Shown here piece after piece: positions 2,604-49,449 of a stretch of DNA of 64,000 bases. The position numbers and the translations under genes were made by a program. Under the pieces are notes generated by a model. It ran no database searches. It had not been told where the DNA came from and was given only the letters and a program-made list of their open reading frames with translations. Positions within the stretch are counted from its first letter, which is position 1, and the number at the start of each line of letters is the position of its first letter. Origin of the DNA: an uncultured Bacteroidales bacterium (GTDB taxonomy: Bacteria; Bacteroidota; Bacteroidia; Bacteroidales; JAADJA01); contig CAYLTG010000001.1 in the NCBI GenBank assembly GCA_964386225.1, forward strand, positions 935 to 64,934. The letters run 5' to 3'.

Positions 2604-4043
2604 TCAATGTTTGTATAGTTTATGGATCGATTCGCCCTGTTCGTACCGGATGAACAGGAAGTAGATGCCCGGGGCCATGCCGTCCAGTCTGATAACCGGG
2701 GATCCCGGATTGAAAAGATGGATCGCTTTACTTTTTAGGACGGTGCCATTGGCTGCGGTCAGGCGGCAAGCGACCGGGATCCTGTCTGTTGTCAGGTAGA
2801 CCTCGTCCGTAACAGGATTGGGATAGACTGTGGTCCTGACCTCCCCGCTGATATGTTGGTCGATGCCCACCTGGGTTCCAAGAAAATTTGTTTTGATCAC
2901 ATAGATGTCTGTCCCTCCCGCCGTATTGTTTTCCGTCATCCCGGCGATGATGAACCCCCCGTCGGCCGTTGCTTTCACCGAATAGCCCTCATCGCCGTAA
3001 ATGCCGCCATAGGTCTGTGTCCAGAGTGTGTCTCCGCTGGGGTCGGTACGGATGAGCCATACATCCTCGTTGCCGGCCCCGTAGCTTTCCGTCTCGCCGC
3101 AAAGGATGTAGCCCCCGTCGTTGGTCACGTCCACGGAGGCGCCGCGCTCATCTTCACCTTCCAGCCCGTAGGTCCTGGTCCATTCCACGTTGCCTGATCC
3201 GTCCGTCTTGACCAGGTAGAAGTCCGCATTCATGAGGACGATGCCCTGGAAATAATTGCCCAGCATGATGAACCCTCCGTCAGGGGTCTCTTTGATGTCC
3301 CAGGCCGATTCGGTGGACTGGTCGCCGCCGATGGTCTTGTTCCACTTTGAGGAACCTGTCTCGGAGACCTTGAATAGCCAGGCATCCGTGAATTCGTCGG
3401 GGGTGTCGAACATGCCTCCTACCACTAATCCGCCATCTTCTGCCCGGACCATGCTCGTTCCGTAATGTACCCCGATGTTGCCTTTCGAGATGTTCCAGAG
3501 GACCTCGCCGGCCAGGTTCACGCTCATGACAAATACATTCTGTCCCCAGAGCTCCGCTCCCCCTTTGCTGTATTGATAGGTGCCGCAGACGGCAAAAGTA
3601 GTATCGCCTGATTGCAAGGCGTGCCAGGCATACCCGTCCGGGTAGGGGTCATTGTATTCCTGCTGCCAGATCTTCGTCCCGGCGGGATCATACCTGGACA
3701 GGAAGGGTACGAACCCGGTGGTGCCGTCGGCGATCCCTGCCACAATGAAACCGCCGTCGCTGACGGGTGTGATGCAATGGGCCTGTTCGATCCCATAGGT
3801 CTCCCCCTCCTGGCGGGTCCAGAGGGTGTCCCCATTCTGATCGAGCTTCATCAGGAAAACATCCTCATACCCCGAGTAGAACTCGGTCGTATATCCCGCG
3901 ATGAGGTAGCTTCCATCATCGCAGATGCTGACATGGTAGGCCATGTCGTCATCGATGCCGCCGTAGGTCCTTTCGAAGACCTGGGCATAACTGGCGGTGA
4001 AGAGCAAGAGGGCCGATGCAAGGGCAGGTGCCTTTTTTTTCAT
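2604..4043 (-). CDS. Secreted seven-repeat (beta-propeller-like) protein with T9SS C-terminal sorting domain
   Basis: 479 aa with signal peptide MKKKAPALASALLLFTASYAQ. About seven ~50-aa repeats carry DGG[FY]I[IVL]xG ... D[VAI][WF]L[IFM]K ... G..[LKE]W. The CTD reads VYPNPVTDEVYL...GIYFLFIRY. Confidence 0.8.
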   Translation of the reverse strand: MKKKAPALASALLLFTASYAQVFERTYGGIDDDMAYHVSICDDGSYLIAGYTTEFYSGYEDVFLMKLDQNGDTLWTRQEGETYGIEQAHCITPVSDGGFIVAGIADGTTGFVPFLSRYDPAGTKIWQQEYNDPYPDGYAWHALQSGDTTFAVCGTYQYSKGGAELWGQNVFVMSVNLAGEVLWNISKGNIGVHYGTSMVRAEDGGLVVGGMFDTPDEFTDAWLFKVSETGSSKWNKTIGGDQSTESAWDIKETPDGGFIMLGNYFQGIVLMNADFYLVKTDGSGNVEWTRTYGLEGEDERGASVDVTNDGGYILCGETESYGAGNEDVWLIRTDPSGDTLWTQTYGGIYGDEGYSVKATADGGFIIAGMTENNTAGGTDIYVIKTNFLGTQVGIDQHISGEVRTTVYPNPVTDEVYLTTDRIPVACRLTAANGTVLKSKAIHLFNPGSPVIRLDGMAPGIYFLFIRYEQGESIHKLYKH

Positions 4044-4404: not shown

Positions 4405-5430
4405 ATGCAAAAAATAATTCAATTTTTCACTGTCACATTGATCGGGACGACCTTTCTTATAAGCTCCTGCAAGCACTCCCCCGAAGACAACATCAACCCC
4501 GACGATCCCAATAACCCGCCGCCGGTCGACACCATCGCCTGCGATTCCACCAACGTCACCTACCCCGGTACGGTTTTCCCCATCCTGCAGGCCAGCTGCC
4601 TCTCCTGCCATGGCGGCGCCACTCCGGCAGGGGGACTCGATTTCAACAATTATGACGACGTGGCCTTCGTGGCCCAGACCGGTCAGCTGGTGGGATCCAT
4701 CAACCACCTTGCAGGGTTCAAGCCCATGCCGCAGAACGGGCCTAAGCTTTCCGGGTGCGAGATCGCACTGATCACGAAATGGGTGAACGATACTACCTTC
4801 AACGGCGGGGGTGGTGGCAACAACGGCAACTGCGACCCCGATACGGTTTATTTTCATAATGATATTCTGCCACTTCTCCTTTCGAGCTGCGGCACCACAG
4901 GCTGCCACGATGAAGGTACGGCCCAGGAGGGCATCATCCTCACCAGCTACTTCCACGTGATGCAGTCGGGGGTGGTGAAGGCCTTCGATCCCAACGACAG
5001 CGAAATGTACGAGAAGATCACGGAGGACGACCCCGAAGACCGCATGCCGCCGCCGCCGCGGACACCCCTCAACGCCGACCAGATCAACATGATCTACACC
5101 TGGATCGCACAGGGGGCGCTGGACAACTCATGCGACGCCGGCGACTGCGACACGGTCAACGTCACCTTCTCGGGGACCATCTTCCCGATGATCCAGAACC
5201 GCTGCTACGGATGTCACAGCGGCCCGGAGCCCCAGAGCGGCATCAGCCTGGAGAATTATGCGTCCGTCAGCGCGGCCGCAGCCATCGCCCCGGGCAATCC
5301 CGGCAGCCTCCTGGGCGCCGTGACCGGGGCACAGGGCAACTCTCCGATGCCCAAGAACGGACCGCCGCTGCCCGACTGCAACATCGAGCAGATCAAGAAA
5401 TGGATCGCCGACGGGATGCCTGACAATTGA
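4405..5430 (+). CDS. Lipoprotein with three PSCyt1-like putative c-heme modules
   Basis: I moved the start from the ORF-track TTG 4255 to ATG 4405, which gives MQKIIQFFTVTLIGTTFLISSC (signal plus lipobox). There are three paralogous ~95-aa modules. Motifs: CLSCH at 4597-4611, CGTTGCH at 4888-4908, CYGCH at 5203-5217. The pattern P-I-L...CxxCHG...MP.NGP.L..C...I.KWI resembles the Planctomycete cytochrome C (PSCyt1) domain. Confidence 0.7.
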   Translation: MQKIIQFFTVTLIGTTFLISSCKHSPEDNINPDDPNNPPPVDTIACDSTNVTYPGTVFPILQASCLSCHGGATPAGGLDFNNYDDVAFVAQTGQLVGSINHLAGFKPMPQNGPKLSGCEIALITKWVNDTTFNGGGGGNNGNCDPDTVYFHNDILPLLLSSCGTTGCHDEGTAQEGIILTSYFHVMQSGVVKAFDPNDSEMYEKITEDDPEDRMPPPPRTPLNADQINMIYTWIAQGALDNSCDAGDCDTVNVTFSGTIFPMIQNRCYGCHSGPEPQSGISLENYASVSAAAAIAPGNPGSLLGAVTGAQGNSPMPKNGPPLPDCNIEQIKKWIADGMPDN

Positions 5431-5544
5431 CAATGAGTGAATGCGTAAATGAGTGAATAAGTGGTGAATTTTTACGGACTTTTTAAACAATCGCTTTGAA
5501 TGGGTGTTGACAGCACTGGCAAGTATAATCAAGAATATCAGATC

Positions 5545-5919
5545 ATGATCAGAAAAACAATCAATGCGGCATTGATGGTCCTGGCCCTGGCCGGCCTGCA
5601 GGCGTGCTACTGGGACAACGAGGAAGAGCTTTACCCCGTGGTGGGCGATTGCGACACCACCAACGTCACCTACTCCGGCACGGTGGCGGTGATCCTTGAC
5701 GCCAGCTGCGTTTCCTGCCACAACAGCACCTTCGCGCAGGCCGGGGTGGTGGTGGACAACTACGACGACCTCAAGGTGGTGGTCGACAACGGCCGTTTCT
5801 GGGGGGCCATCAACCATGAGGACGGATATTCACCCATGCCTCAGAACCTCCCCAAACTGCCGGAGTGCGACCTGAAGAAGATAAGGACCTGGATCGATAA
5901 CGGCGCCATGAATGACTGA
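5545..5919 (+). CDS. Lipoprotein with one PSCyt1-like putative c-heme module
   Basis: Start at ATG 5545 (MIRKTINAALMVLALAGLQAC, lipobox). It carries a single module paralogous to those of the upstream gene, with CVSCH at 5707-5721 and ...MPQNLPKLPECDLKKIRTWIDNGA. Confidence 0.7.
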   Translation: MIRKTINAALMVLALAGLQACYWDNEEELYPVVGDCDTTNVTYSGTVAVILDASCVSCHNSTFAQAGVVVDNYDDLKVVVDNGRFWGAINHEDGYSPMPQNLPKLPECDLKKIRTWIDNGAMND

Positions 5920-6029: not shown

Positions 6030-6947
6030 ATGAAGCAACTGATTATCCTGCTCACCGCCCTTGCATTCAGCGCGTTGCCTATCCTCGCCCAGGACGACCT
6101 GATGGACCTGCTGAACAGCGAAGAGCAGGCCGTTGATTACACCTATGCCACCTTCAAGACCTCGAGGATCATCAACTCACACTCGGTGGAGCAGCCCGCA
6201 TCAGGCGTCCTGATGTTCCTCATCCAGCACCGGTTCGGGCGGCTGAACACCGGATTCTATGAACTATTCGGGCTCGACCAGGCAACCATCCGGCTGGGCC
6301 TGGAATACGGCGTCACCGACCGGCTTAGCATCGGCGTGGGTCGCAGTTCCTACCAGAAGACCTATGACGGGTTCGTCAAGTACAAGTTGTTGCGGCAGAG
6401 TACGGGTGCCCGGAAAATGCCCGTGACACTCTCGTACTACGGCAGCATGACGCTCAATTCGCTGAAATGGGAAGACCTGGGTGTGGAAGATCGCGACAAC
6501 AATTTCAGCTCCCGCCTGGCCTATACCCACAAGTTGCTGCTGGCGCGCAAGTTCAGCAGCAGCATTTCCCTGCAGCTGATGCCGACCTACACCCACAAGA
6601 ACCTTGTTCCCACGGCCGACGATGCCAACGACATCTTCTCCATGGGCGTCGGCGGAAGGGTGAAGATCACGAACCGGATGTCGGTGAATGCGGAATATTA
6701 CTACACCCCGGAAAGCCAGATCTCCTATGAGTTCACGCAGCCCTTCTCCCTTGGCCTCGACCTGGAAACGGGGGGGCATGTCTTCCAGCTCCACTTCTCC
6801 AATGCCCAGGCCTTCTTCGACAGCGGCTACCTGACCGAGACCTCCGGAAAGTGGGGCGATGGCGACGTCTATTTCGGGTTCAACATCTCACGGGTCTTCA
6901 CGATCAAGAAACCGAAGGTGCCGGAAGGGGAATCCACGGGATATTGA
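6030..6947 (+). CDS. Small outer-membrane beta-barrel protein (family not assigned)
   Basis: 305 aa with signal peptide MKQLIILLTALAFSALPILAQ. The sequence has an alternating amphipathic strand pattern rich in Y/G/S/T. It is the last gene of the CxxCH lipoprotein operon and is followed by a terminator. Confidence 0.65.
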   Translation: MKQLIILLTALAFSALPILAQDDLMDLLNSEEQAVDYTYATFKTSRIINSHSVEQPASGVLMFLIQHRFGRLNTGFYELFGLDQATIRLGLEYGVTDRLSIGVGRSSYQKTYDGFVKYKLLRQSTGARKMPVTLSYYGSMTLNSLKWEDLGVEDRDNNFSSRLAYTHKLLLARKFSSSISLQLMPTYTHKNLVPTADDANDIFSMGVGGRVKITNRMSVNAEYYYTPESQISYEFTQPFSLGLDLETGGHVFQLHFSNAQAFFDSGYLTETSGKWGDGDVYFGFNISRVFTIKKPKVPEGESTGY

Positions 6948-7045: not shown

Positions 7046-7759
7046 ATGTTATCAACTATCCATATGGAATTGTTCAAGGCAAACGACAAGCTGTTCGACC
7101 TGGTTGATGCCAACCACAACCTGCTGCCCGTGCTGAACCGGTTCGGCATTCGTCCGGGGTTCAAGGACAGGACGGTGGCGGAGGTATGCGCCGAAAAGGA
7201 GATCAACAAGGACTTCTTCCTGGCGCTGGTGAATACTTACAACAACCCTGATTATTTCCCGGAGGAAGAGCTGCTTGGGTTTTCCCCGCTGCTGATCATC
7301 GATTACCTCCGCAAAACGCATGAGTATTACATTGGTTATTTCCTGCCCCGCCTGGAATGGCTGCTCGACAGGATGTCGGGCGATGACGGGGGCGACAACC
7401 GCGACTTGAGAACGATCCGGTCTTTCTATGAGAAATACAGGCAGGAGCTCCTGGCCCATATCCGTGATGAGGAGGAGAATGTATTCCCGGCTGTCGTGGA
7501 CTTCATCCGGAACAGCGCGGACCGGAAACTGGGCAATGCGGCCATTTCCTTTGAAAAGGAACATACCAACGTGGAAATGAAGCTGAGCGACCTCAAGCAC
7601 CTCATCGTCAAATATGTCAGGCCGGGATACGACGACCATGATTTTTATGAGTTCGTGTCGGCCCTCTACCGTTTTGAAAAGGACATCATCGACCATGCCC
7701 GCATCGAGGACAAGATCCTCGTGCCCCGGATCAAAGGGATCACACCCGCTGCCAGATGA
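7046..7759 (+). CDS. Hemerythrin-like domain protein (RIC/ScdA-like architecture)
   Basis: 237 aa. The N-terminal ~60-aa helical domain resembles ScdA_N/DUF1858. The C-terminal part has spaced H/E residues (HEYYIGYF, AHIRDEEENVF, EKEHTNVE, IDHARIEDKIL) as in hemerythrin-like cation-binding four-helix bundles. An alternative start is ATG 7064 (MELFK...). Confidence 0.65.
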   Translation: MLSTIHMELFKANDKLFDLVDANHNLLPVLNRFGIRPGFKDRTVAEVCAEKEINKDFFLALVNTYNNPDYFPEEELLGFSPLLIIDYLRKTHEYYIGYFLPRLEWLLDRMSGDDGGDNRDLRTIRSFYEKYRQELLAHIRDEEENVFPAVVDFIRNSADRKLGNAAISFEKEHTNVEMKLSDLKHLIVKYVRPGYDDHDFYEFVSALYRFEKDIIDHARIEDKILVPRIKGITPAAR

Positions 7760-8352
7760 AAAGGGAGATCTTCATCATACACCCGTCACCCATTGTCAGG
7801 AAAGGGTTGAACGCCGCCCTGCGTGGCTTTTTCAGCCACGACATCACGATGCTGCCGGATGCTTCTGAAATGAAGGCCTACAGGGAGATCAGGAATTCCA
7901 TCGTGATCGTGTTCATCGGTCCTGACCAGGACCGGGGGCACCTCACCCGCCTCCAGGCGAGTAACCGGCTTCACCTGGTGCAGATCACCGGATCGGCCGG
8001 AGAAGGGGAGGTGAACGGCGACAAGGACCCTTTCCTCAGCATCCACGCCCAGGATCATCAGATCCGTGAACTGCTCCACGGGCTTCTGGAAAGGGACTCC
8101 GCCGCTGTTGCCGACCGGCCGCAGGACGACGAACTGACGGTCCGGGAAAAGGAGGTGCTAGCCCTGGTAGCCATGGGCCACTCCAGCAAGGAGATCGCCG
8201 ACAAGCTGTTCATCAGCGTCCATACCGTGATCTCCCACAGGAAGAACATCACCGAGAAGCTGGGCATCAAGTCCATCTCCGGCCTTACCGTGTATGCCAT
8301 CCTCAACCGCGTCATCGACCCCGATACCCTGAATGCCGACCTGCTGATCTGA
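7756..8352 (+). CDS. LuxR/GerE-family transcriptional regulator with degenerate receiver-like N-terminus
   Basis: The C-terminal HTH is LTVREKEVLALVAMGHSSKEIADKLFISVHTVISHRKNITEKLGI. The start overlaps the upstream stop as ATGA (7756-7759). The N-terminal beta1 reads IFIIHPSP rather than an acidic DD pair. Confidence 0.8.
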   Translation: MKREIFIIHPSPIVRKGLNAALRGFFSHDITMLPDASEMKAYREIRNSIVIVFIGPDQDRGHLTRLQASNRLHLVQITGSAGEGEVNGDKDPFLSIHAQDHQIRELLHGLLERDSAAVADRPQDDELTVREKEVLALVAMGHSSKEIADKLFISVHTVISHRKNITEKLGIKSISGLTVYAILNRVIDPDTLNADLLI

Positions 8353-8435
8353 AAAATCCCAACAATTGGGGATTTCCATTCTGAATTAGTCCGGGTAGTT
8401 TTGCTTTGTTAAATGATGAACAAATCAAAACGATC

Positions 8436-9641
8436 ATGAGAACCGCAGCAACAATGGCCATGATCCTGCTGATATCTTTCGCGGGACAGGCACAGAATAC
8501 CGACAGCAGCAATAATGTATACAGGAACACCGCCGACCGGATGATGGTCAACGACAGCCGGCTCACCCTGGGTGGATACGGGGAGGTGCACTACAACCAA
8601 CCGGTGGGGGGTGCGACGCGCAGCCTGGGGACATTGGACGTCCACCGCGTGGTCCTGCTTTTCGGCTATAAATTCAATGCACGCACCCAATTTGTTACCG
8701 AGATCGAGTTCGAACATGTCAGTGAAGTGTATATTGAGCAGGCCTTCCTGCAGTACAAGATCACCAACGGGATCAGTTTCAGGGGCGGGTTGCTGCTGAT
8801 CCCCATGGGCATCATCAACGAATACCATGAGCCCACCACCTTTCAGGGCGTGGAACGGCCCCTGGTGGACAAGGTCATCGCACCCACCACCTGGCGCGAG
8901 ATCGGGCTGGGATTCAACGGCAACATCTTCCCCGCCTATCTGAAGTACCAGGTCTACCTTGTGAACGGGTTTGCGGGATACGACGGCGAGGCCAACCTGA
9001 ACGGCAGGAACGGACTGCGGGGAGGTCGCCAGAAAGGGGCCGAATCTTTTATCAGCGCGCCCAATCTCACGGGTAAGTTGGAATTCTACGGGGTCCGCGG
9101 CCTGAACGTCGGACTTTCGGGGTACTTCGGGAATACCCAGAGCAACATGTACAAGGGGATCGAAGTGAACGATGCCGAAGGAAAGACCAGGGCCGATTCT
9201 TCCGTGGTGGGCGTTTCCATGGTCGGGATCGATGCCAGGTATTCGATGAAAGGTTTCGAATTGAGGGGGCAGTACTATCACGTCGGCCTGTCGAACACCG
9301 GTCCCTACAACCAATTCACAGCCTCGGAAGAAGGCCCCAACGACCTGGGCAGCCGGATGTCGGGATATTACCTGGAGGCAGGCTACAACGTGTTCAGGCT
9401 GCTCCGTGGCGTGGGCACTGAATTGGTCCCCTTCGTCCGGATTGAGCAATACGATACACATGCCGCAGTGGAGGAGGGCACCACCCGGAATGACGGATAC
9501 AACAACACGATCATCACCACCGGCCTCAGCTGGCGGATGGCGCCGGGGGCTGTCCTCAAGGCTGACATGCAGTTCGTGAAACCCCGGTCGGCCGGCAATT
9601 ACAGCCAGGTATTCAGCGCAGGCCTCGGTTTCATGTTTTGA
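8436..9641 (+). CDS. Outer-membrane porin-like beta-barrel
   Basis: Start at ATG 8436 (MRTAATMAMILLISFAGQAQ signal); the ORF-track start is TTG 8406. It has an amphipathic strand pattern, and the C-terminus GLGFMF ends in an aromatic residue, typical of OM barrels. Confidence 0.7.
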   Translation: MRTAATMAMILLISFAGQAQNTDSSNNVYRNTADRMMVNDSRLTLGGYGEVHYNQPVGGATRSLGTLDVHRVVLLFGYKFNARTQFVTEIEFEHVSEVYIEQAFLQYKITNGISFRGGLLLIPMGIINEYHEPTTFQGVERPLVDKVIAPTTWREIGLGFNGNIFPAYLKYQVYLVNGFAGYDGEANLNGRNGLRGGRQKGAESFISAPNLTGKLEFYGVRGLNVGLSGYFGNTQSNMYKGIEVNDAEGKTRADSSVVGVSMVGIDARYSMKGFELRGQYYHVGLSNTGPYNQFTASEEGPNDLGSRMSGYYLEAGYNVFRLLRGVGTELVPFVRIEQYDTHAAVEEGTTRNDGYNNTIITTGLSWRMAPGAVLKADMQFVKPRSAGNYSQVFSAGLGFMF

Positions 9642-9653
9642 TACGCTAAAGCT

Positions 9654-10265
9654 ATGAACAGGATTGTTTCACTTCTTTTGGTATTGGCCTGGTCGACCTC
9701 GGTACCCGGCCAGCCCGGAATCGACTATGGCCACAAACGCTTGTTCAAGGCCATCGAGCGGGAATGGGGACTCACGGATCCAGCCTTGGAAGAGCAGGCG
9801 GTAGCCGATACTATTCCCCTGGCCGAACCGGTCCAGGGGAAGTTTTTCCGGATCCAGGAAAATGAATACGTAAGCAATGACCATTATATTTTCGTGGGGA
9901 GGGTGAACAGCTGCCGTGCCGGTGGCTGTTCCGTTTCCCTCGACGAGGAATTGTATGGGAATTCGGAGTATTTCGATTATTTCATCCTCTTCGGCCCGGG
10001 CCCCGCGGTGCAGGATGTTCAGGTCTTCAACTACCAGGCATCCTATGGCCAGGAGGTGTCGGCACGCGGTTGGCTGAGGCAATTCCAGGGGTACGACGGT
10101 AAATCCTACCTCCAGGTCGGAAAGGACATCGATGCCATCTCCGGGGCCACCATTTCGGTGTATGCCATTACCCAGGATGTCATCCAGAAAACAAGGCTCC
10201 TCTGCGAAATGACGTGCCCCGGGTGTGCAAAAAAAATCGCCGCTTCCAGCGGAAACGGCGACTGA
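9654..10265 (+). CDS. Secreted FMN-binding-domain protein
   Basis: Signal peptide MNRIVSLLLVLAWSTSVPGQP. The motif DAISGATIS (10131-10157) matches the FMN_bind [ST]GA[TS] flavinylation motif of NqrC/RnfG-type domains. It starts 12 nt after the porin gene. Confidence 0.7.
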   Translation: MNRIVSLLLVLAWSTSVPGQPGIDYGHKRLFKAIEREWGLTDPALEEQAVADTIPLAEPVQGKFFRIQENEYVSNDHYIFVGRVNSCRAGGCSVSLDEELYGNSEYFDYFILFGPGPAVQDVQVFNYQASYGQEVSARGWLRQFQGYDGKSYLQVGKDIDAISGATISVYAITQDVIQKTRLLCEMTCPGCAKKIAASSGNGD

Positions 10266-10280: not shown

Positions 10281-10484
10281 TTACTTTTTTTTCGTGGTGC
10301 TCAATCCGAAGGGCAGATAAAGCGGGCAGAAGCTGACCAGGCTTGTGAGCAGGAATACGATGGCCAGGATCAGGAGGATGAGTCCCAGCGTTCCTGTGAT
10401 CACGTTCGTGAAATAGAGGACTGCGATGACCACAGCCAGGATGATGCGTACGATCCGGTCAGTGGATCCCATGTTTGCTTTCAT
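10281..10484 (-). CDS. DUF2892 (YgaP-like transmembrane domain) small membrane protein
   Basis: 67 aa. GSTDRIVRIILAVVI...two TM helices...FCPLY matches the characteristic DUF2892 pattern. Confidence 0.8.
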   Translation of the reverse strand: MKANMGSTDRIVRIILAVVIAVLYFTNVITGTLGLILLILAIVFLLTSLVSFCPLYLPFGLSTTKKK

Positions 10485-10546: not shown

Positions 10547-11104
10547 TTATTTCTTGAACTCTTCCAGCGCGACTTCAACAGTCACTTCGATCTCTTCGGC
10601 GATGTTATTGACCACCGTTTTGGGGATCTTGATGTCATGATCGGCGGGTTTGACAATAAATTTGCAATTGCCTTTCACCGCCCCGTCGGTCACGGTGAAA
10701 GTGCCGGACTCCTTGACCTCCCGGTCCACACCATGGATCGTCAGGATCCCTTCCACGATGGCCCGGTATTCTCCGGAAGTTCCGAAATCGATCTGGTCGA
10801 GGTTCGTCACTTTGCCTTTGAAGGTTGCATTGGGGAACTTCTCCGACTCCACGTAGTTCTCGTTGAAATGCTCCTGCATGAGGGCTTTTTCGAACTCGAA
10901 CGAACGCATGAGGACCTTGAAGACGAAATCGCCGGATTCCGAATCCAGGGCGCTGTTCACCTGGCGATTATGAGCTTCGATGGTCTCGATGGGGGTTTCG
11001 GAGTAGAACTTGATATACCCGTTCTTTGTGATGTACTTCTGCGAGAAGCCGGCCAAAAAGAACAGGAGCAGGGCTGCGGTTAGCATTGTTTGTTTCATTT
11101 CCAT
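10547..11104 (-). CDS. YceI-family (polyisoprenoid-binding lipocalin-like) periplasmic protein
   Basis: 185 aa with a signal peptide. The YceI-like core is ...IKFYSETPIETIEA...EHFNENYVESEKFPNATFKG...LTIHGV.... It is a paralog of the gene at 17213-17785. Confidence 0.85.
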   Translation of the reverse strand: MEMKQTMLTAALLLFFLAGFSQKYITKNGYIKFYSETPIETIEAHNRQVNSALDSESGDFVFKVLMRSFEFEKALMQEHFNENYVESEKFPNATFKGKVTNLDQIDFGTSGEYRAIVEGILTIHGVDREVKESGTFTVTDGAVKGNCKFIVKPADHDIKIPKTVVNNIAEEIEVTVEVALEEFKK

Positions 11105-11159: not shown

Positions 11160-12953
11160 CTATAATTTAATGATCGTTTTCGAAATTACCAGCCCGTTGT
11201 CGAGTTTCAGTGAGAGGTAATAGATCCCTGGTATGGCGTCACTCATGTCCACGCTGGCATTTTGCGTTCCGCCCCGCACAGTGAAATTACTGACCATCCT
11301 GCCGGTTGAAGAGTAAAGGCTGGCCTCGGTCACGCGCAGGTCATCCAGTTCGGCCCGCAGGGTGAATTTGTCGGTCACCGGGTTGGGGTACACATGCACC
11401 TGGCTTGCCAGGATGTTCTCCCGGATGCCGGTCAGTGGCCACTGGATGTCCGTGAAATTGGTGTTATGGGTGAAATCCAGCTCGCTGTCGCCGGCCACGC
11501 CGTTCAGTTCAAGCCTCCAGGCATGGTCAGCGGGGGGCGGGTCGTACACGCCGTTGCCGTTATGATCGGCATAGAAGTCCACGAAGTAATCCTCACCCAG
11601 TTCCAGCCCGATGGCAAGGGCGTCATAATCAACGAGCACGATGCTGTCGAGCCGCATCCTGCCGGCCTCCTGCATGGTAGCCTGGTTCACCAGCCGCAGT
11701 TCGAAGAGCTGGCCAAGGTGCGGGGTCATCCCCATGGCATGGAGCGTGAACCGGTACTCCCAGCCGATGTCGGTGAAGTTGGTATTGTGAATGAACTCGT
11801 CGTCCTCATCGCCCTCCACATCGGTGAGCTCCAGCCTCCAGGCATGGTCGGCAGGGGGCGCATCGTACACGCCGTTGCCGTTATGATCGGCCCAGAAATC
11901 CACATAATAGGTTTCCCCGGTGCTGATGAATGGCATATGCACGTCGAACTCCGCCGAGGGGATCGCGTCCACCTTTGCGCGGCCGGCTTCTTTCATGGTG
12001 GCCATGTCCACGAGGCGCACCTCTAATTTTTGCCCGATGTGCGGGGTCATGCCGCTGAACTCCAGCGTGTACATGTGCTTGAAGTTGATCTCCGAGAAGT
12101 TGAGGTTATGCTGGAAATCCACGGCGGAAAATCCCATGAAGTCGTTCACGGTGAGCCTCCAGGCATGGTCGGTGGGGATGCCGTCGTACCATCCGTTGTC
12201 ATTGTGGTCGGCGTAGAAATCGATCCAGTAGCTCTTTCCGTCCTCGGTGTTGGAAAAGGAAATGTCGAAGTCGGGGCCCGGCACCTCATCCAAAGCGAGG
12301 CGTTCCACCTCCGTGAGGTTTTCCTTGTCGATGAGCCTGGCTTCCATCAGCTGGCCCACGTGCGGGGTCATGCCGGTCAGGTTGACGGTGATCCCGGTCT
12401 GTACGCCGGAGGATTCGGCCACCGGAAGGGTGGAGGTGTAGATGACGTCCCCCTGGTTGTTGCCGTTCCCGTTGGCGGCGTTGAAGGCGGCATAGAAGGT
12501 GACCTCGCCGGTGCCTGCTGCGGGGGCGGTCCAGTCGAACGACCAGGATTTGGAATCGCCCGTGGGGGTGGTGCCTGCGTTCTTGTGCGTGATGGCGTTG
12601 TTGCTGTTGATCAGCATGGTCTCGGTCGCATTGGTGACCACCAGGGTGCCGACCTTGCTGGCGCCCGCATCCTCCGAGGTCAGTTCGAACCCGAATTTCC
12701 CGACTCCGGGATGCGTACCCGTGGCGGTGATGGTATAGGTCTGACCCGGCTCATAGCCGTCGGCAGGGATGTCGGAGGTGATCCAGCCCGCCTGCGCCGT
12801 GGCTGTTCCGCTATGACACTGGGTGCAGGTGGTGCCGCCGTCGCCGGGGCTGCCGGTCTTGCCGCCCGGTGAGCCGGAGGAATACATCAATTCGGAGGTC
12901 AGCAGGAAAAACAGGCCCGCCACAGTAAAGAGAAGGTAAATTGCTTTTTTCAT
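11160..12953 (-). CDS. T9SS-sorted surface protein: N-terminal CxxCH domain plus three ~105-aa repeats
   Basis: 597 aa with a signal peptide. GGTTCTQCHSG carries the CxxCH at 12813-12827. Three repeats follow, each with GMTPH[VIL]GQ ... ADHN[GD]NG[VW]YD..P[AT]DHAWRL. The T9SS CTD is VYPNPVTDKFTL...GIYYLSLKL...IKL. Confidence 0.8.
   Translation of the reverse strand: MKKAIYLLFTVAGLFFLLTSELMYSSGSPGGKTGSPGDGGTTCTQCHSGTATAQAGWITSDIPADGYEPGQTYTITATGTHPGVGKFGFELTSEDAGASKVGTLVVTNATETMLINSNNAITHKNAGTTPTGDSKSWSFDWTAPAAGTGEVTFYAAFNAANGNGNNQGDVIYTSTLPVAESSGVQTGITVNLTGMTPHVGQLMEARLIDKENLTEVERLALDEVPGPDFDISFSNTEDGKSYWIDFYADHNDNGWYDGIPTDHAWRLTVNDFMGFSAVDFQHNLNFSEINFKHMYTLEFSGMTPHIGQKLEVRLVDMATMKEAGRAKVDAIPSAEFDVHMPFISTGETYYVDFWADHNGNGVYDAPPADHAWRLELTDVEGDEDDEFIHNTNFTDIGWEYRFTLHAMGMTPHLGQLFELRLVNQATMQEAGRMRLDSIVLVDYDALAIGLELGEDYFVDFYADHNGNGVYDPPPADHAWRLELNGVAGDSELDFTHNTNFTDIQWPLTGIRENILASQVHVYPNPVTDKFTLRAELDDLRVTEASLYSSTGRMVSNFTVRGGTQNASVDMSDAIPGIYYLSLKLDNGLVISKTIIKL
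11433..12392 (-). repeat. Three tandem intragenic coding repeats (~315 nt each)
   Basis: Protein repeats span roughly aa 188-294, 295-400 and 401-507. Repeats 2 and 3 share an identical 29-nt stretch, TCGTACACGCCGTTGCCGTTATGATCGGC (11863-11891 and 11542-11570). Confidence 0.8.
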
Positions 12954-13524: not shown

Positions 13525-14283
13525 TCAGCCGGCCTGTCCGTCAAGCCATTTCTTGAAGCTTCCCGAGCGCTCTGTGCTGGCTACGGTCTCGAAATCGCAG
13601 GGCGGATCCAGCTCGACCTTCACCCGCGATTTGGACCAGGCGTACATCTCCCTGATCGCGCGGATGTTGATGATGATCTGCCTGTTGATGCGGTAGTAAC
13701 GCTCCGGGTCAAGCATGCCCTCCAGACGGTCGAGGCTGTGGTCCGATGGGTATTCCATGCCGTCGAAGGTCTTGAAGAAATTGTTTCCCTCCAGGGTATA
13801 GAAATAGGCGATCTCATCCGTCGGTACCACCTTGATCTTCTGTCCGTAGCGCACCATGAACCGCTTCTGGTAGCTGCGGGGCGTCAGGACCCCCGCCAGG
13901 GCCCCGTAATCGGGCTTCCTGTCCTGCTGCGAGATCCTTTTCAGTTTATCCAGGCTGGCCTTCAACTGGTCGCGCGACACCGGCTTCAGCAGGTAGTCGA
14001 TGCTGTTCACCCGGAAGGCATCGATGGCGTACTGGTCGTATGCCGTGGTGAAGATCACGGGGATATCCATGTGGACGGCCCTGTATATCTCGAAGCAGCT
14101 GCCATCGGCCAGGTGGATGTCCTGGAAGATCAGGTCGGGGTGGGGGTGGGAGGTCAGCCAGGCGATGCTGGATTCGACGCTGTCAAGGATCTCCACCACC
14201 TCGATGCCGGGATCCAGTTCGCCGATCAGTTTTTGCAGCCGCTGGGCCGTGGCGTGTTCGTCTTCGATGATGAGCGCTTTCAT
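13525..14283 (-). CDS. LytTR-family two-component response regulator
   Basis: The receiver is MKALIIEDE...DLIFQDIHLADG.... The C-terminal LytTR DNA-binding domain is ...IKVVPTDEIAYFYTLEGNNFF...YYRINRQIIINI.... I prefer ATG 14283 over the ORF-track TTG 14292. Confidence 0.9.
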   Translation of the reverse strand: MKALIIEDEHATAQRLQKLIGELDPGIEVVEILDSVESSIAWLTSHPHPDLIFQDIHLADGSCFEIYRAVHMDIPVIFTTAYDQYAIDAFRVNSIDYLLKPVSRDQLKASLDKLKRISQQDRKPDYGALAGVLTPRSYQKRFMVRYGQKIKVVPTDEIAYFYTLEGNNFFKTFDGMEYPSDHSLDRLEGMLDPERYYRINRQIIINIRAIREMYAWSKSRVKVELDPPCDFETVASTERSGSFKKWLDGQAG

Positions 14284-14288
14284 GAAAT

Positions 14289-17216
14289 TCAAGGGATAAA
14301 AGGAAGTCCGACGGTGAAGGCATGTTCCGTTTTGATGACCATAACTTCTTCATCGGTGAGCAGTTTGTACCTGCTGATGATGTTGTTGATGCCGATCCCG
14401 GTGGAAGGTGTATCCTGCAATTTTTCCTGGATGTTGTTCTCCACAAAAATACGATTTTCGCCGGGTTTTGAAAAGATTTTGATCCTTAAGGGTTTGCCCC
14501 TGGATGCCACATTGTGCTTGATCGCATTCTCGATGAGCAGCTGCAAGGTGAGGGGCGGGATCTTCGTCCCCCTGAAGGCGGAGGGTTCCTCCATTTCAAC
14601 CACCAGGTTGCTGCCATACCTCTTTTTCTGCAGGTTGATGTAGTTGCCGGCGATCTCGTACTCACGGTCCAGGCTCACCAGGTCCTGGTCCTTGTATTCC
14701 AGGATGATCCTGAAGAGCATGGAAAGTTCTTCCACGTAGTTGACAGCAGCCTTTGTGTCATCTTCGATGAGTGCGATGAGGGTGCTGAAGCTGTTGAACA
14801 GGAAGTGGGGGTTGATCTGGCTCTTCAGGTTCTCGAACTGGAACCTGATCTTTTCCTGGATCAATTCCTCCTTTCGCCTAACCTGCCGGATCCTGGCCGT
14901 AAGGATCATGGCGGTCAGCCCGCCTGCCGCCAGCACCAGCAGGATGTAAAACCAGATCGAGGAATGGAATGGCTTGCGGATGGTGAAGGTGTACGCTTCT
15001 TCCCCGGCAGCGCTGAAATTTCCGTAAAGGCCCGACCTGACGCGGAAAGTGTATTCACCCGGCCGCAGGTCAGAATAGATCACCTGGTTGTTGCGTGTCC
15101 GTATCCAGCCCAGGTCATGTCCGTCAAGCTTCACCTGGTATTCCACCTGGTCGGGTTGCTGGTACCAGAAACCCGAATAGTTGAACGAGAGGTGGTTCTC
15201 GTTGTGGTTAAACTGCTTGCTGCCCGAATGGTTGAACGGCTCCAGGAACAGGGCGACCCCTTCCAGTTTGGTCCGCGGCTGTTCCCACAACCCTTTTTCC
15301 AGGGGCCGGATCCGGATAATGCCTTTGGCCGTCCCTATCCATAGTGCATGGTGCGAATCGCGGGCGAGGGTGTTGAGGTCGGGGTTGATGAAGGCGATCC
15401 CCGCATTTTCCTCGAAATGCCGGATGGCCCCGGTGGATATGTTCATCACATCGATGCCGTTCTCGTGGGCCATCACCAGTTCGCCCTTGCTGCTGAGTAT
15501 CCCGCTGATGGTCACTTCCCGCCGTCCGGCCTCGCGGGAAATCCGGGAATAGCTTGTGCCGTCGTATTTATGGAGTCCTTCTCCGGCTATGTTGAGCCAG
15601 GTGTTGCCGGCGTCATCGCGAGCGACCGAATATACCACCTTGTCGGCCATTTCACCCCCCGGGTCCAGGTGGAGGAATTCCCCGTCCCGGTAAAGATGCA
15701 CGCCGCTGCCGTCGGTCGCGAAATAGGGTGTTCCGTCGTCCGGGAGGAATACCTGGTAGATGTAATTGTTCACGAGCCCTTCCTCCGATCCGAAATTCTG
15801 AAAAGTTGGCACGTGGTCCGGTTCTTCCATGTTTTTATCCATGATGCACCGTGATGCGCCGCCCAGTGTGCCGAACCAGATCTCCTGCCTGTTCCCGGTA
15901 ATGGAGAGCACATTGCCGTTCACCAGCCCGTCGCGCTCGGTGATGACTACCTGCCGGCCGGTCCCGGGGTCCATCCTGACCAGCCCGCTGCCGAAGGTCC
16001 CCACCCAGATGAAGCCGAGGTAGTCGCGGTAGATGCTCATCACCTTCTGCTGGTCCAGGTCGATGATCAGCGGGTGATGTACCGCGGCTGCCCCGGGCTG
16101 CCCCGGGTCATAGGAGTAGATGCCCCGGTCATCGGCGAACCACAGCTGGTCGTCGCTGTCGACGGTGAGGGCATGGATGTTGTTCAGCTCCATCCCGCCG
16201 ATCGACTGGAAGAACTCGATCCTGTTCCCGAACGAAAGATACAATTCGTTGCCGGAGAGCAGCCAGATGTTGCCCTCCTGGTCCCTAAGCATGGACTTGA
16301 TCCTTCCCATGGTTTGTTCCCCGACATCCCGGTAATGGGTCACGGTGCCGGTTTCGGGGCTGTATTCCATGATGCCCCTGTCCGATGTGGCGATCCAAAT
16401 CCTGTCCTCCAGGATCACCATGTCGCGCACCGCACCGAACTGCCATTCCCGCAGGTTTTCCGGCACGTGGAAGGTGCCGCTGCGTTGGTCATACCTGCAG
16501 ATGCCCCGGTCATACATCCCGATCCAGATGCTGCCGCTGTCACCGGCGGCGAGGCATTGCACGATAAAATCGGGCAGGCCCTCGTCGATGCTCAGCTTCG
16601 TAACTTTCCATGCGCCACCCTCGGATCCCGCCACATTGATCCCGTTGTCGGTGCCCATCCAGATCCTGTTGCCGGGACCCGTGACGATGGAGTAGATGTA
16701 ATTGTCGGAAAGGCCTGACTCGCTGTTCATCTGGACGATGGCCGTATCCCGGCTGACGAATGCGCCGCTGCCGTAGGTGGCCATCCACACGGTCCCCGGC
16801 TCTCCCTCGACGAAGCCCGTGATCCGGCTGACATTCTCCCTGCCGGCTGACAGCACGGTGTCGAAAACCTCGAATCCGTCATACGTCAGGACGCCGCCAT
16901 TTTCAAAACCGATCCAGAGGTTGCCGGAATGGTCGGTGAACAGGGCGGTTGGTCCCTCGTCCCTGAAGTTGCCGGGGAGCACCACCGGTGTGAAGGATAG
17001 TCCGTCGAAGGTGTACAACCCTGCGGCCGTCCCCAGCCAGATCATGCCGTCGTGATCCTGGTGTATGCAGTTCAGGTTGCCCTCCCCGACTTTCGTGTCG
17101 ATGGGGACAGTCCGGAACCAGGCCTGGGCCCGCGCGTCAGGTGCCGCCAGCAGCACCGGAAGGATCAGGGTCGCAACCGCGGCAATCAGGGTCAACAGGA
17201 AGGGGCGCCCGGTCAT
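14289..17216 (-). CDS. Sensor histidine kinase with periplasmic two-component-regulator propeller/Y_Y_Y domain and LytS/YehU-type kinase core
   Basis: 975 aa with a signal or TM segment. Many propeller repeats are present (G.IW[IL]GT..G[LI]). The Y_Y_Y-like segment is YQVKLDGHDLGWIRT...PGEYTFRVRS and the TM segment is IWFYILLVLAAGGLTAMILTA. The His_kinase box is QINPHFLFNSFSTLIALI, followed by a HATPase region. Confidence 0.9.
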   Translation of the reverse strand: MTGRPFLLTLIAAVATLILPVLLAAPDARAQAWFRTVPIDTKVGEGNLNCIHQDHDGMIWLGTAAGLYTFDGLSFTPVVLPGNFRDEGPTALFTDHSGNLWIGFENGGVLTYDGFEVFDTVLSAGRENVSRITGFVEGEPGTVWMATYGSGAFVSRDTAIVQMNSESGLSDNYIYSIVTGPGNRIWMGTDNGINVAGSEGGAWKVTKLSIDEGLPDFIVQCLAAGDSGSIWIGMYDRGICRYDQRSGTFHVPENLREWQFGAVRDMVILEDRIWIATSDRGIMEYSPETGTVTHYRDVGEQTMGRIKSMLRDQEGNIWLLSGNELYLSFGNRIEFFQSIGGMELNNIHALTVDSDDQLWFADDRGIYSYDPGQPGAAAVHHPLIIDLDQQKVMSIYRDYLGFIWVGTFGSGLVRMDPGTGRQVVITERDGLVNGNVLSITGNRQEIWFGTLGGASRCIMDKNMEEPDHVPTFQNFGSEEGLVNNYIYQVFLPDDGTPYFATDGSGVHLYRDGEFLHLDPGGEMADKVVYSVARDDAGNTWLNIAGEGLHKYDGTSYSRISREAGRREVTISGILSSKGELVMAHENGIDVMNISTGAIRHFEENAGIAFINPDLNTLARDSHHALWIGTAKGIIRIRPLEKGLWEQPRTKLEGVALFLEPFNHSGSKQFNHNENHLSFNYSGFWYQQPDQVEYQVKLDGHDLGWIRTRNNQVIYSDLRPGEYTFRVRSGLYGNFSAAGEEAYTFTIRKPFHSSIWFYILLVLAAGGLTAMILTARIRQVRRKEELIQEKIRFQFENLKSQINPHFLFNSFSTLIALIEDDTKAAVNYVEELSMLFRIILEYKDQDLVSLDREYEIAGNYINLQKKRYGSNLVVEMEEPSAFRGTKIPPLTLQLLIENAIKHNVASRGKPLRIKIFSKPGENRIFVENNIQEKLQDTPSTGIGINNIISRYKLLTDEEVMVIKTEHAFTVGLPFIP

Positions 17217-17785
17217 GGGGTGGATGGTGTTTTGGTCAGTGTCACTTCAATGCTCACGGCCACCTCTTCGGCGATCTTCTGGTAGACGAGCTTCGGAATG
17301 GTGATGTTGTGGTCGTCGAGGCTGACCATGAACCTGCTGGTGGCCGTGAACTGGTCCGGCCCGATGTCGAGCATGCATTTGATGATCCTTTCTTTTTTGA
17401 CACCGTGGATGTCAAGGATGCCCTTGGCCCGGACCTCGAGCCGACCCGGGACGCTGAGGTCGACCTTTTCGATGATCCTCCCGCTGAAAGAGGCGTTGGG
17501 ATATTTCTCCACCTCGATGTAGTTCTCGTAAAAATGTTCCTGCTGCAAGGGTGAATTGAAACCGGTAAGGGTTTGCGTCCCCACCTGGAAGGCAAAGGTG
17601 CCCTTGGAGGGATCGAACAGGCCCCTGAGGGCATCCGACTCTGCTGCGATGAGTTCCAGCGGGGCGTCGGAAACGAAGGAAACATGCCCGTTCTCGGCCC
17701 TGTATAGTACGGCGGACCCCTCATCCTGTCCCAACAGGCCGAGGGCAAGGCAAAGGAACGACAAGCTGATGATCATCCTGTTCAC
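17213..17785 (-). CDS. YceI-family periplasmic protein, translationally coupled to the sensor kinase
   Basis: 190 aa with a GTG start and a signal peptide. The YceI-like core is EHFYENYIEVEKYPNASFSG...ILDIHGV. Its stop overlaps the kinase ATG as ATGA (17213-17216). Confidence 0.85.
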   Translation of the reverse strand: MNRMIISLSFLCLALGLLGQDEGSAVLYRAENGHVSFVSDAPLELIAAESDALRGLFDPSKGTFAFQVGTQTLTGFNSPLQQEHFYENYIEVEKYPNASFSGRIIEKVDLSVPGRLEVRAKGILDIHGVKKERIIKCMLDIGPDQFTATSRFMVSLDDHNITIPKLVYQKIAEEVAVSIEVTLTKTPSTP

Positions 17786-47984: not shown

Positions 47985-48190
47985 GTGTGAATATTCTGGT
48001 TGTCAGTTCAATTAACAATCAGGGAGAGGTTTTGTTCGGCAGTTCCATATTCTGCCAAACCTTGAATTAATTTTTCAATGAGTCACTTTTGGATGAAACC
48101 ATGGGATATGTGCATGTCATTGTTTTGGTTGTGCGGGTGAGGGACTGGAAAACTTCAAACCCTTCCGCCATCGGAAATGAAATTTGCATG

Positions 48191-48206
48191 TTCCCCTCCG
48201 GATTCA
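48191..48206. repeat. Left copy of direct repeat TTCCCC(C)TCCGGATTCA bounding the AT-rich islet
   Basis: TTCCCCTCCGGATTCA. The 14-nt core CCCCTCCGGATTCA is identical to the copy at 49371-49387. Confidence 0.4.
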
Positions 48207-48408
48207 TACCCCTGAATTCTGCCATTTTTTTTTGTAGTTGATTTCAGCGATGGTTAGAAATTTAAGTCTTGTATTTTTAATTTTCACATATAAAATTCAT
48301 TTAAAAACATAAGGCCTACTTCCTAAAGTTGAAGCTACGAAAATCAACACCAAAAGAAAGAGTAGCTGAAAATGTAAAAATTATAAACTAACAATTAAAA
48401 TCTGTATC

Positions 48409-49104
48409 ATGAAGAATTTATGTTATTTAATCTTTCTTGCAATAATAGGAGTAAGCTGCAATGAAGTTGGGGAAGTAACTTTTGGAGATATGAATGCCGA
48501 GAAGGATGATGAGAAATCAACTCCAGTTATGGCAGGTAATTCAGAAGAGGTTCAACATCATTATAAATACAATTGTATTGATCATTGTGATGGATCTGGT
48601 GAAGAATGCACCATGTCAATAAATGTTCAACAAGGCTATGTCGAATGTAATTGTGAGGGTTGTACATTGGTTGTTGAAGTTGTTGATCCGGAAGATGGAA
48701 GTAGCCAAACCATAAATGCAGAGACGGAGGCTTTTGGTGCGAGCTATAAGCAAATGATGGATAAACTTCTCAAGAAAAACATGTACCTTAATTTCCTTGA
48801 GGAGTTTGTACAAGAGAAATTTAGTACAAGCTATTATGAAATTACGGCAATAGAACTCGTTGAAGCCGGAGAGAACTATGGAATTATTTATGACTTTAAA
48901 ACCGATAATGAGATTGAAGAATCAGTTATGTATGTCTGGTTGAATAGCTTGGGTGAAGAGGAAGGCCAAACTTATGAGATTGATTGCCATGGTTCCTGTG
49001 ATACTCCAGAAGAAACATGTCGCGAGAGGTTCACTTTTAATCCTCCTGCAGCGGAGTGCACATGTGAAAGTAATAACTGCACCATGACAGTTAAAGAAAC
49101 ATAG
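48409..49104 (+). CDS. Cys-rich lipoprotein with duplicated six-Cys module (orphan)
   Basis: Lipobox MKNLCYLIFLAIIGVSC. AT-rich codon usage differs from the flanking genes. Two modules follow Cx3Cx6Cx12CxCx2-4C, at aa 56-85 (48574-48663) and aa 193-224 (48985-49080). Confidence 0.65.
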   Translation: MKNLCYLIFLAIIGVSCNEVGEVTFGDMNAEKDDEKSTPVMAGNSEEVQHHYKYNCIDHCDGSGEECTMSINVQQGYVECNCEGCTLVVEVVDPEDGSSQTINAETEAFGASYKQMMDKLLKKNMYLNFLEEFVQEKFSTSYYEITAIELVEAGENYGIIYDFKTDNEIEESVMYVWLNSLGEEEGQTYEIDCHGSCDTPEETCRERFTFNPPAAECTCESNNCTMTVKET

Positions 49105-49387: not shown

Positions 49388-49410
49388 AATAAAATTTGGT
49401 TCCTGATGGA

Positions 49411-49439: not shown

Positions 49440-49449
49440 TTTTTCGGAG

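Follow-up and report, generated by a model that had tools for sequence, protein, structure and literature searches.

Can a c-type cytochrome be carried to the bacterial cell surface by a type IX secretion system (T9SS)? The question is raised by a gene in a 64,000-nt stretch of DNA from an uncultured Bacteroidales bacterium (positions 935 to 64,934 of contig CAYLTG010000001.1, assembly GCA_964386225.1; hereafter the window), whose 597-residue product has a CxxCH motif near its N-terminus, followed by three repeats and a T9SS C-terminal sorting domain (CTD). A first reading made without database searches (the sequence-only reading) had suggested a c-type heme protein exported by T9SS. Surface c-type cytochromes have a central part in metal respiration and corrosion by microbes and, to our knowledge, are known almost entirely from Proteobacteria and Desulfobacterota, in which they are exported by type II secretion. 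No paper linking T9SS with c-type cytochromes was found in the open-access literature searched. From the sequence comparisons and models described here, we give about even chances to the view that the product of this gene is a surface redox protein displayed by T9SS, probably carrying heme c.

The open reading frame (ORF), the CxxCH and the repeats lie in the sequence where the sequence-only reading had placed them. The protein consists of a signal peptide, a Reeler-like head, three repeats that we term DHAW repeats and a type-A T9SS CTD (Table 1). The signal peptide lacks a lipobox cysteine, and homologs that align as ...[AY]S and [ST]GSPGG on the two sides of the presumed cut point to the likely cleavage site. 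As had been supposed, the C-terminus is a T9SS CTD: it scored above the curated cut-offs of both models, i.e., 45.9 bits with PF18962 (gathering cut-off, GA, 27) and 38.9 bits with TIGR04183 (cut-off 23), and a profile including it matched solved T9SS CTD structures, e.g., 8glk and 8glj. With this CTD at the extreme C-terminus and a Sec signal at the N-terminus, the protein is by sequence a type-A cargo, which would be exported by T9SS to, or released from, the cell surface. Proteins of the same architecture are P0241 (596 aa), L011 (594 aa) and L041 (597 aa), where P-numbers denote homologous proteins and L-numbers the genome loci compared. The nearest genome match was in the Bacteroidales metagenome-assembled genome (MAG) HKST-UBA08, at 79% identity, and an exact-sequence look-up of the 597-residue protein returned no record in the index searched.

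The two cysteines of the CTQCH motif, C43 and C46, are the only ones in the protein. Exactly one CxxCH was present at the same place in all 120 of the closest homologs, of which 111 had no other cysteine. Both cysteines and the histidine that follows were invariant in an alignment of the query with 147 diverse representatives of 48-72% identity (148/148), and remained so across all 268 sequences examined. The sequence-only reading had named non-conservation of these residues as grounds for giving up the heme proposal; since they are invariant in 268/268, the proposal is not refuted on this count, with the variable spacing of the cysteines as a genuine caveat (two residues in 242 of the 268, three in 6, four in 17 and five in 2). 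A lone CxxCH that is built from the only cysteines of the protein and kept in every homolog is not there by chance. A second histidine of the head, H123, is a candidate distal ligand; it was His in 141 of the 148 aligned sequences and Gln in the others, and was retained in both spacing classes. H81 was not conserved. The context of the motif weakly resembles heme-binding segments of reaction-centre tetraheme cytochromes, at a sub-significant E value of 0.017.

The head belongs to the choice-of-anchor V family of NCBIfam (NF041895), which has no assigned function: residues 24-176 matched profile positions 8-149 of 150 with 118.9 bits (cut-off 42; E = 1.8e-34). It also matched the Reeler domain (PF02014) over residues 64-157, with 30.1 bits (GA 21) and the first 24 profile positions unmatched. 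An AlphaFold2 (AF2) model of the head, built from 76 sequences and with a predicted local distance difference test score (pLDDT) of 92.4, is a β-sandwich that follows a 27-residue arm of little regular structure. Foldseek aligned this model with the reeler crystals of F-spondin, 3coo and 2zot (E = 1e-8 to 5e-7, TM-score 0.53-0.68); the sequence profile of the head likewise matched Spondin-1 (E about 0.002), and hhalign matched it to the reeler domains of animal ferric-chelate reductases (FRRS1; E = 1.7e-6), pairing the bacterial AITH(123)KN with the AVSH of the animal domains. The earlier suggestion of a Reeler relative thus agrees with PF02014, NF041895, the model and hhalign alike, and the DOMON-like part of that suggestion fell away, as the Pfam DOMON hidden Markov model (HMM) gave no match to the protein at E ≤ 1. 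Membership of the MXAN_6652 family (NF041894) was rejected at 34.4 bits against a cut-off of 200, the relationship being through the shared head only. The head family is very large, with 5891 clusters (50% identity) at E ≤ 1e-3. In L022, L088, L014 and L053 the head is fused to one to four IPT-like Ig domains, CBM-like repeats or LTD regions, and one such protein, of 1142 aa, has nine Cys-rich CBM-like repeats. The choice-of-anchor V head serves generally as a "tip" module for diverse stalks.

Reeler proteins, i.e., F-spondin (3COO/2ZOT) and ferric-chelate reductase 1/SDR2, share with the bacterial head W-x-AP-x-x-GTG and the His of AV[ST]H. The bacterial head differs from them in having an additional Gly/Pro-rich arm, on which C-x-x-C-H holds its only Cys residues, whereas in animal reelers C..M.P.H is accompanied by a second Cys within the domain. 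The mature N-termini of the animal FRRS1 reelers (P0388-P0400) read YP[SN]GKV..[SA]C..M.P.HG, with Cys, Met and His before the sandwich. This loosely parallels the bacterial arm, GSPGGKTGSPGDGG..C..CH; hhalign did not establish homology of the arms. We know of no cofactor in any reeler domain. In animal CYBDOM proteins, too, the reeler sits outermost in an extracellular redox chain, where its function is given as unknown (bioRxiv 10.1101/2023.09.01.555970).

The head is followed by three in-register repeats with a period of 321 nt (107 aa), in which GMTPH recurs at residues 194, 301 and 408 and ADHN[DG]NG[WV]YD at residues 248, 355 and 462. A three-repeat query matched 942 proteins, nearly all over 98% of its length and at 43-52% identity. 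These carry three or four repeats and a T9SS CTD, and the DHAW module is thus a widespread, uncharacterised T9SS family. Neither Pfam nor NCBIfam has a model matching the repeats; the family gave only faint DUF2141/GEVED matches, and neither the repeat region nor the repeat profile had a significant sequence relative in the PDB. Membership of DUF2141 (PF09912) was ruled out, because that model did not match our protein at E ≤ 1; on homologs it gave a short match centred on the DxNxNG loop, no stretch passing alone. A search of the literature on DUF2141 found nothing functional. In an AF2 model (pLDDT 95.4), the repeat region forms three seven-strand Ig-like sandwiches, for which Foldseek returned only generic tandem FN3, pilin and SdrD-type matches (SdrD 10ps; TM-score ~0.2, three domains).

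Each repeat of the aligned sequences has an invariant P-H (of MTPH), D (of YAD), D-H-x-W and F-x-H (of FxHN), so that three histidines per repeat were invariant in 84/84 aligned module sequences, query included. These residues, the three-repeat module and the CTD are what our protein has in common with other DHAW-repeat T9SS proteins. The loop D-x-N-x-N-G-x-Y-D is present in all three repeats of the protein; across the aligned sequences its D is invariant and conservation of its N, N and D reaches at least 90%, consistent with the putative Ca-binding loop that the sequence-only reading took it to resemble. From the strand order of the model, the three histidines and the loop would sit together at one end of each sandwich, where the invariant His3/Asp2 set may form a metal site exchanging electrons with the tethered head.

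The domains fused or adjacent to this module elsewhere provide the strongest indirect argument for a redox link of the module and a carrier role of the Reeler head. DHAW proteins fall into five groups, i.e., headless proteins and those with a Temptin_C-like, plastocyanin/azurin, Cytochrom_C or Reeler head. The headless forms (446-450 aa) are the majority and the Reeler head is a minority combination, so that our protein is unlike most of its DHAW relatives. Since headless proteins are the majority, the module is not merely a spacer. The Temptin_C-like heads had CxxCH in 27/27 cases, and plastocyanin/azurin heads were found in P0153, P0191, P0201 and P0235. The head of P0190 (L095:4242-5879) passed the Pfam model Cytochrom_C (23.4 bits; GA 21.3) and is followed by three DHAW repeats and a T9SS-type C-terminus, the latter slightly under the Por_Secre_tail threshold (23.1 bits; GA 27). 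At the sequence level, P0190 is an example of a cytochrome c that T9SS may sort. Altogether, T9SS sorting domains were found on this one Cytochrom_C protein and on many cupredoxin- or CxxCH-headed proteins.

Genes that adjoin DHAW genes repeat this pattern. At the headless loci L006, L091/L092 and L093 (3/3), the gene directly upstream encodes a lipoprotein of 140-150 aa with homology to the head of P0190 (E about 1e-11). At L008/L009 the same small cytochrome gene lies directly downstream of the DHAW gene and is followed by YceI and DUF5777 genes, and at L094 the gene after the Temptin_C-DHAW gene encodes a 209-aa cupredoxin with its own T9SS CTD (L094:7831-8460); this blue-copper protein appears to be T9SS cargo as well. 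P0190 adjoins an Nqr/Rnf-like operon, and upstream of it lie genes for an HMA P-type ATPase, rubredoxin and rubrerythrin. In all, an electron-carrier domain was fused or adjacent in 7/7 of the DHAW contexts examined, a Rosetta-stone pattern, and the Reeler head occupies the same position on the module as the cytochrome, cupredoxin and Temptin-like heads. Because a carrier is present in all seven contexts, we take the module to be redox-linked and the Reeler head to stand in a carrier role.

The small cytochromes adjoining DHAW genes have CX4CH motifs (CLGAQCH, CTGAQCH, CAFSGCH and CALSGCH); their homologs P0190 and the small cytochrome of the window (5500-5919) have CX2CH. In three of them (L006:6554-6976, L091:5519-5971 and L093:5534-5962), the lipobox Cys is followed by acidic residues (CSDEE, CSEDQ and CSNDN), an arrangement that we take to resemble the surface-export signal of Bacteroidota lipoproteins. 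By this analogy the cytochromes upstream of headless DHAW genes may themselves be surface-exposed. Temptin is a mollusc pheromone; the bacterial Temptin_C-like heads, e.g., residues 26-117 of P0128, combine S-C-x-x-C-H with a DADNDG Ca-type loop (27/27).

The mechanism that we consider most likely would run as follows. The protein would pass the inner membrane by Sec and, in the periplasm, heme would be attached covalently to C43 and C46 in the Gly/Pro-rich arm, with H47 as proximal and H123 possibly as distal ligand, giving a monoheme c-type cytochrome whose fold is not that of a cytochrome. By way of its type-A CTD, T9SS would next export the folded holo-protein and place it on, or release it from, the cell surface, with the Reeler-fold head at the distal end. 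There the DHAW repeats would not only act as a spacer but would each contribute a Ca-type loop and a His3/Asp2 metal site, and the head would exchange electrons with these sites or with an external substrate. The two YceI proteins and the OB-fold-like and YgaP-like proteins, as well as the lipoprotein cytochromes and DUF5777 barrel encoded nearby (see below), would supply electrons across the envelope, a direction and purpose of electron flow that we infer.

Several observations weigh against heme. No cytochrome HMM of Pfam or NCBIfam matched the head at E ≤ 1, and the head as modelled is a Reeler sandwich, not a cytochrome c fold. We know of no Reeler-fold protein that binds heme, nor of any experimentally characterised member of the head or DHAW families. 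Among the 147 representatives the motif was CX2CH in 122 (83%) and CX3-5CH in the rest (17%); CX5CH is not, as far as we know, an established heme motif, and a disulfide or metal loop would accommodate drift in spacing more easily. This drift is not disqualifying in itself, because a change from CX2CH to CX4CH is also seen at the homologous position in genuine cytochrome-c-type domains of these organisms. At about 90% of head-gene loci, neither cytochrome nor YceI nor DUF5777 genes occurred within 7 kb, and unsupervised clustering of the neighbours at 80 head-gene loci revealed no universal partner. The head also tops stalks as varied as IPT-like Ig, CBM-like and LTD domains, and a head-stalk-anchor layout is typical of adhesins. 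A surface adhesin or ligand binder, whose Reeler head binds a polymer or a cell-surface ligand in the manner of eukaryotic reeler domains, with C43 and C46 joined in a disulfide loop, H47 and H123 structural or in contact with the ligand, and the DHAW repeats forming a Ca2+-rigid stalk, like the B repeats of SdrD, to keep the head at a distance from the cell, is in our view possible, though on the whole unlikely. It would account for the recurrence of the head-stalk-CTD layout with many other stalks, for a Cys-Cys spacing of 2-5 residues, which suits a disulfide loop, for the matches of the repeats to tandem FN3, pilins and SdrD-type stalk domains, and for the want of redox neighbours at most head genes; the nearest solved relatives of the head, moreover, are reeler domains of extracellular-matrix proteins. 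However, an adhesin leaves unexplained the His directly after the second Cys (268/268) with the predominance of CX2CH, the three invariant histidines of each repeat (84/84), and the fact that all other heads and neighbours of the DHAW module are cytochromes or cupredoxins. The preponderance of headless DHAW proteins, too, is at odds with a module that only holds up a head.

We consider it improbable that the motif instead serves a non-heme metal protein. In such a protein Cu, Zn or Fe would be bound at a Cys2His(2) site made up of C43, C46, H47 and perhaps also H123, resembling the CxxC of Sco/CopZ, for capture or reduction of metal at the surface in metal homeostasis. Cys2His sets are classical Cu ligands and could tolerate variation in loop length, cupredoxin heads can replace the Reeler head on the DHAW module, the animal FRRS1 reelers keep a metal-ligand-like set (C..M.P.H and the His of AVSH), and one DHAW locus adjoins an HMA-type P-type ATPase gene. 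Free thiols, however, would be unusual on an exported surface protein, the predominant motif is the exact heme-c signature, and no metal-chaperone family HMM matched; the N-terminal arm lies outside the region aligned by hhalign, so that any homology of the motif with that of FRRS1 would be putative.

In the window, the gene lies in a row of co-directional genes on the (-) strand, in the order YceI, histidine kinase, LytTR regulator, OB-fold-like gene, our gene, YceI and a gene for a YgaP-like transmembrane (TM) protein (Table 1). The gaps from the OB-fold-like to the YgaP-like gene are 19, 55 and 62 nt, and the stop and start codons of the upstream YceI, kinase and LytTR genes (13525..17785) overlap. 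The sigma-70 promoter consensus is uninformative for Bacteroidota. YceI proteins are polyisoprenoid/quinone binders. The order OB-fold-like gene, slot, YceI recurs in L003-L005, L010, L011, L018-L020, L032 and L041, and the order YceI-kinase-LytTR in L003, L005, L010, L018, L020, L032 and L041. The slot is filled by a short head+CTD gene (270-275 aa) in L003-L005, L010, L018-L020 and L032, and by the fused form in L011 and L041, as in the window. This short choice-of-anchor V form (NF041895, ~270 aa) has a head 61-81% identical to ours and shares the C..CH motif and the CTD with it; our protein differs from it by the three DHAW repeats (321 aa) between head and CTD. The fused form was present at 6 of the 80 genome loci, and in a neighbour-joining tree of heads the fused forms fell in at least three or four places; because they are so scattered, the repeat module must have been gained or lost repeatedly. 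Profile iteration gave YceI, cytochrome and DUF5777 counts of only 4-8 of 80 loci, and we claim no family-wide operon for head genes. The YgaP-like protein (67-70 aa, PF11127) adjoins head genes at 12/80 genome loci, and another YgaP-like gene (L091:7408-7620) adjoins a headless DHAW gene.

The organism probably makes c-type cytochromes, because two lipoprotein cytochromes are encoded at 4405-5919, followed by a DUF5777 outer-membrane barrel. In the larger cytochrome, the middle domain, with its CX4CH motif (CGTTGCH), was the best match to PSCyt1 and retains its Met-Pro, an indication that CX4CH functions as a heme motif in this organism. The cytochrome-cytochrome-DUF5777 trio is syntenic in L005, L010, L020 and L032, and in L085 and L008 it is directly adjacent to head or DHAW genes. 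In the Chlorobi MAG L085, a short head gene is followed directly by genes for a small cytochrome, DUF5777 and YceI. These three thus occur beside head or DHAW genes in three distant lineages, i.e., the clade of the window, Chlorobi (L085:7797-9828) and Melioribacteraceae (L008:8810-10694), and by analogy this gene set is reminiscent of a porin-cytochrome unit. A literature search on DUF5777 found nothing. Synteny of the genes at 7046-10265 with the target locus is seen in L020 and, in part, in L003, L005 and L010. Among the window ORFs surveyed, all 120 aa or longer, none was recognised as a gene for cytochrome c maturation (Ccm or CcsBA), the comparison with family models taking in only a minority of ORFs past 21 kb.

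Table 1. Features of the locus in the coordinates of the window.
Feature	Coordinates	Strand	Evidence or remarks
Complete coding sequence, 597 aa, fused surface protein	11160..12953	(-)	ORF list and translation
Sec signal peptide, ~aa 1-25, MKKAIYLLFTVAGLFFLLTSELMYS	12879..12953	(-)	n-region and hydrophobic core
Head, aa 24-176, choice-of-anchor V / Reeler-fold β-sandwich with Gly/Pro-rich N-terminal arm	12426..12884	(-)	
CTQCH (C43, C46, H47), candidate heme-c attachment motif	12813..12827	(-)	
His123 (AITHKN), second conserved head His, candidate distal ligand	12585..12587	(-)	
DHAW repeat 1 (R1), aa 186-292	12078..12398	(-)	H198, D249-x-N-x-N-G-x-Y-D257 loop, D262-H263-A-W, H282
DHAW repeat 2 (R2), aa 293-399	11757..12077	(-)	H305, D356 loop, D369-H370, H389
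DHAW repeat 3 (R3), aa 400-506	11436..11756	(-)	H412, D463 loop, D476-H477, H496
29-nt block in R2, probable conversion recipient	11863..11891	(-)	encodes ADHNGNGVYD
29-nt block in R3, probable donor	11542..11570	(-)	
Type-A T9SS C-terminal sorting domain, aa 521-597	11163..11393	(-)	PF18962 and TIGR04183
tRNA_anti-like (OB-fold-like) membrane-anchored protein, 152 aa	12973..13431	(-)	PF12869 E=4e-18; 19 nt upstream of the start of the coding sequence
YceI-like gene, 185 aa, downstream	10547..11104	(-)	PF04264 E=6e-14; 55-nt gap
YgaP-like 2-TM protein, 67 aa, last gene of unit	10281..10484	(-)	PF11127 E=2e-22
Strong terminator-like hairpin, 13 bp stem and T-run, ending the OB-target-YceI-YgaP unit	10235..10263	(-)	consensus scan only
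LytTR response regulator	13525-14292	(-)	co-directional, upstream
Y_Y_Y/LytS-type histidine kinase	14289-17216	(-)	co-directional, upstream
Second YceI	17213-17785	(-)	co-directional, upstream
Three-domain lipoprotein cytochrome c	4405-5430	(+)	CLSCH, CGTTGCH and CYGCH, each with distal MP
Small lipoprotein cytochrome c	5500-5919	(+)	CVSCH
DUF5777 outer-membrane β-barrel	6030-6947	(+)	
Hemerythrin-like protein, LuxR/GerE regulator, 411-aa porin-like protein, FMN_bind-like lipoprotein ending CPGC	7046-10265	(+)	

Both the head and DHAW families are already catalogued or detectable, and comparison with known systems suggests a variant of surface electron-transfer proteins. One likeness is to Cbp2D and Cbp2E of Cellvibrio japonicus, secreted modular proteins with c-type cytochrome (X183/X132) and YceI-like (X158) domains (PMC8981238). 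Like our locus, they bring together an extracellular single-CXXCH domain and YceI-like polyisoprenoid/quinone binders, and both have been proposed to move electrons outside the cell (PMC8981238). We count them in favour of a surface redox protein, as a precedent for secreted YceI-like and c-type cytochrome redox proteins. They differ from our locus in that X183 is a classical class-I cytochrome, CBM2 targets them to cellulose and their route is not T9SS; furthermore, the YceI-like module is a domain inside Cbp2D/E but a separate gene here.

MtrC and OmcA, which form porin-cytochrome conduits with MtrAB, are decaheme outer-surface proteins exported by type II secretion and held by a lipid anchor, and Cyc2 is a fused cytochrome-porin. 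Our locus shares with them the concept of joint encoding of periplasmic or lipoprotein cytochromes, an outer-membrane barrel (here DUF5777) and a surface CxxCH protein. There is no relationship of sequence or fold with MtrC, OmcA or Cyc2, however, and our protein has a single CxxCH and is localised by a T9SS CTD. Nor is there any sign that DUF5777 houses a cytochrome. Two further analogies, neither implying homology, are cytochrome f, a β-sandwich protein whose heme c is carried by a CxxCH lying ~20 residues into the mature chain, and the copper nitrite reductases (NirK), in which cupredoxin and cytochrome c swap as tethered donors to a His3 metal centre.

If the head binds heme, it would be a new cytochrome fold and a candidate route of extracellular electron transfer for the Fibrobacteres-Chlorobi-Bacteroidetes (FCB) superphylum, which is abundant in sediments and digesters, and it would point to a function, open to testing, for the reeler domain of animal ferric reductases. 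If it is heme-free, the analysis still marks out a repeat family that is large and uncharacterised, has a putative His3 metal site and is consistently partnered with redox domains. A wider proposal, which we regard as rather doubtful, is that Bacteroidota, Ignavibacteriota and Calditrichota have an unrecognised T9SS-dependent apparatus for extracellular electron transfer, in which His3-metal DHAW proteins receive electrons from monoheme cytochromes or cupredoxins, tethered or adjacent, one of these carriers being a Reeler-fold c-type cytochrome, and are wired through lipoprotein cytochromes, the DUF5777 barrel and YceI quinone carriers. As a corollary, equally speculative, a redox module that bound a cofactor would be the ancestor of the reeler in eukaryotic CYBDOM ferric reductases.

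The repeats had been described as recently homogenised, with a shared 29-nt block taken to imply recent duplication or gene conversion. Within the protein, however, they are only 42%, 46% and 59% identical (55-63% in DNA), whereas same-numbered repeats in P0241, P0224, L011 and L041 are closer, at 58-62% for R1 (62% for L011 and 58% for P0241), 67-75% for R2 and 70-84% for R3. The R2 repeats of P0224, P0241 and L041 are 69-75% identical to that of our protein, compared with 59% for its own R3, and the R3 repeats of P0224, P0241 and L011 are 72-84% identical to their counterpart. Because each repeat is nearer to its positional ortholog than to its paralogs, the triplication predates these lineages, and both a recent duplication and a global homogenisation of the repeats are ruled out. 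The 29-nt identity itself is exact and cannot be extended (11542-11570 = 11863-11891). When codons were redrawn according to the codon usage of the gene, the amino-acid sequences being kept, P was about 0.006 for at least 29 identical nt between R2 and R3. The corresponding loops of ortholog R2 repeats read ADLNQNG, ADHNANG, ADLNGNG and ADHSGNG, and those of ortholog R3 repeats ADHNGNG; the R2 loop of our protein, ADHNGNGVYD, is thus of the R3 type, and identity between R2 and R3 is 59%, as against 49-50% in the orthologs. The block is therefore real and no sign of duplication; at most it records a short (~30-nt) gene-conversion tract from R3 to R2, a plausible event and the best explanation of the identity.

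Elsewhere in the window, the genes at 480-2597 (-) and 2604-4043 (-) encode two more candidate T9SS cargo proteins, whose C-termini scored slightly under the Por_Secre_tail threshold (25.6 and 24.5 bits; GA 27); one of the two has a DUF5122 β-propeller-like region. The stretch from 48001 to 50000, with a GC content of 0.41 as against ~0.55 elsewhere, adjoins a tRNA-Met gene (49449-49521, (-) strand) and may be an integrated element.

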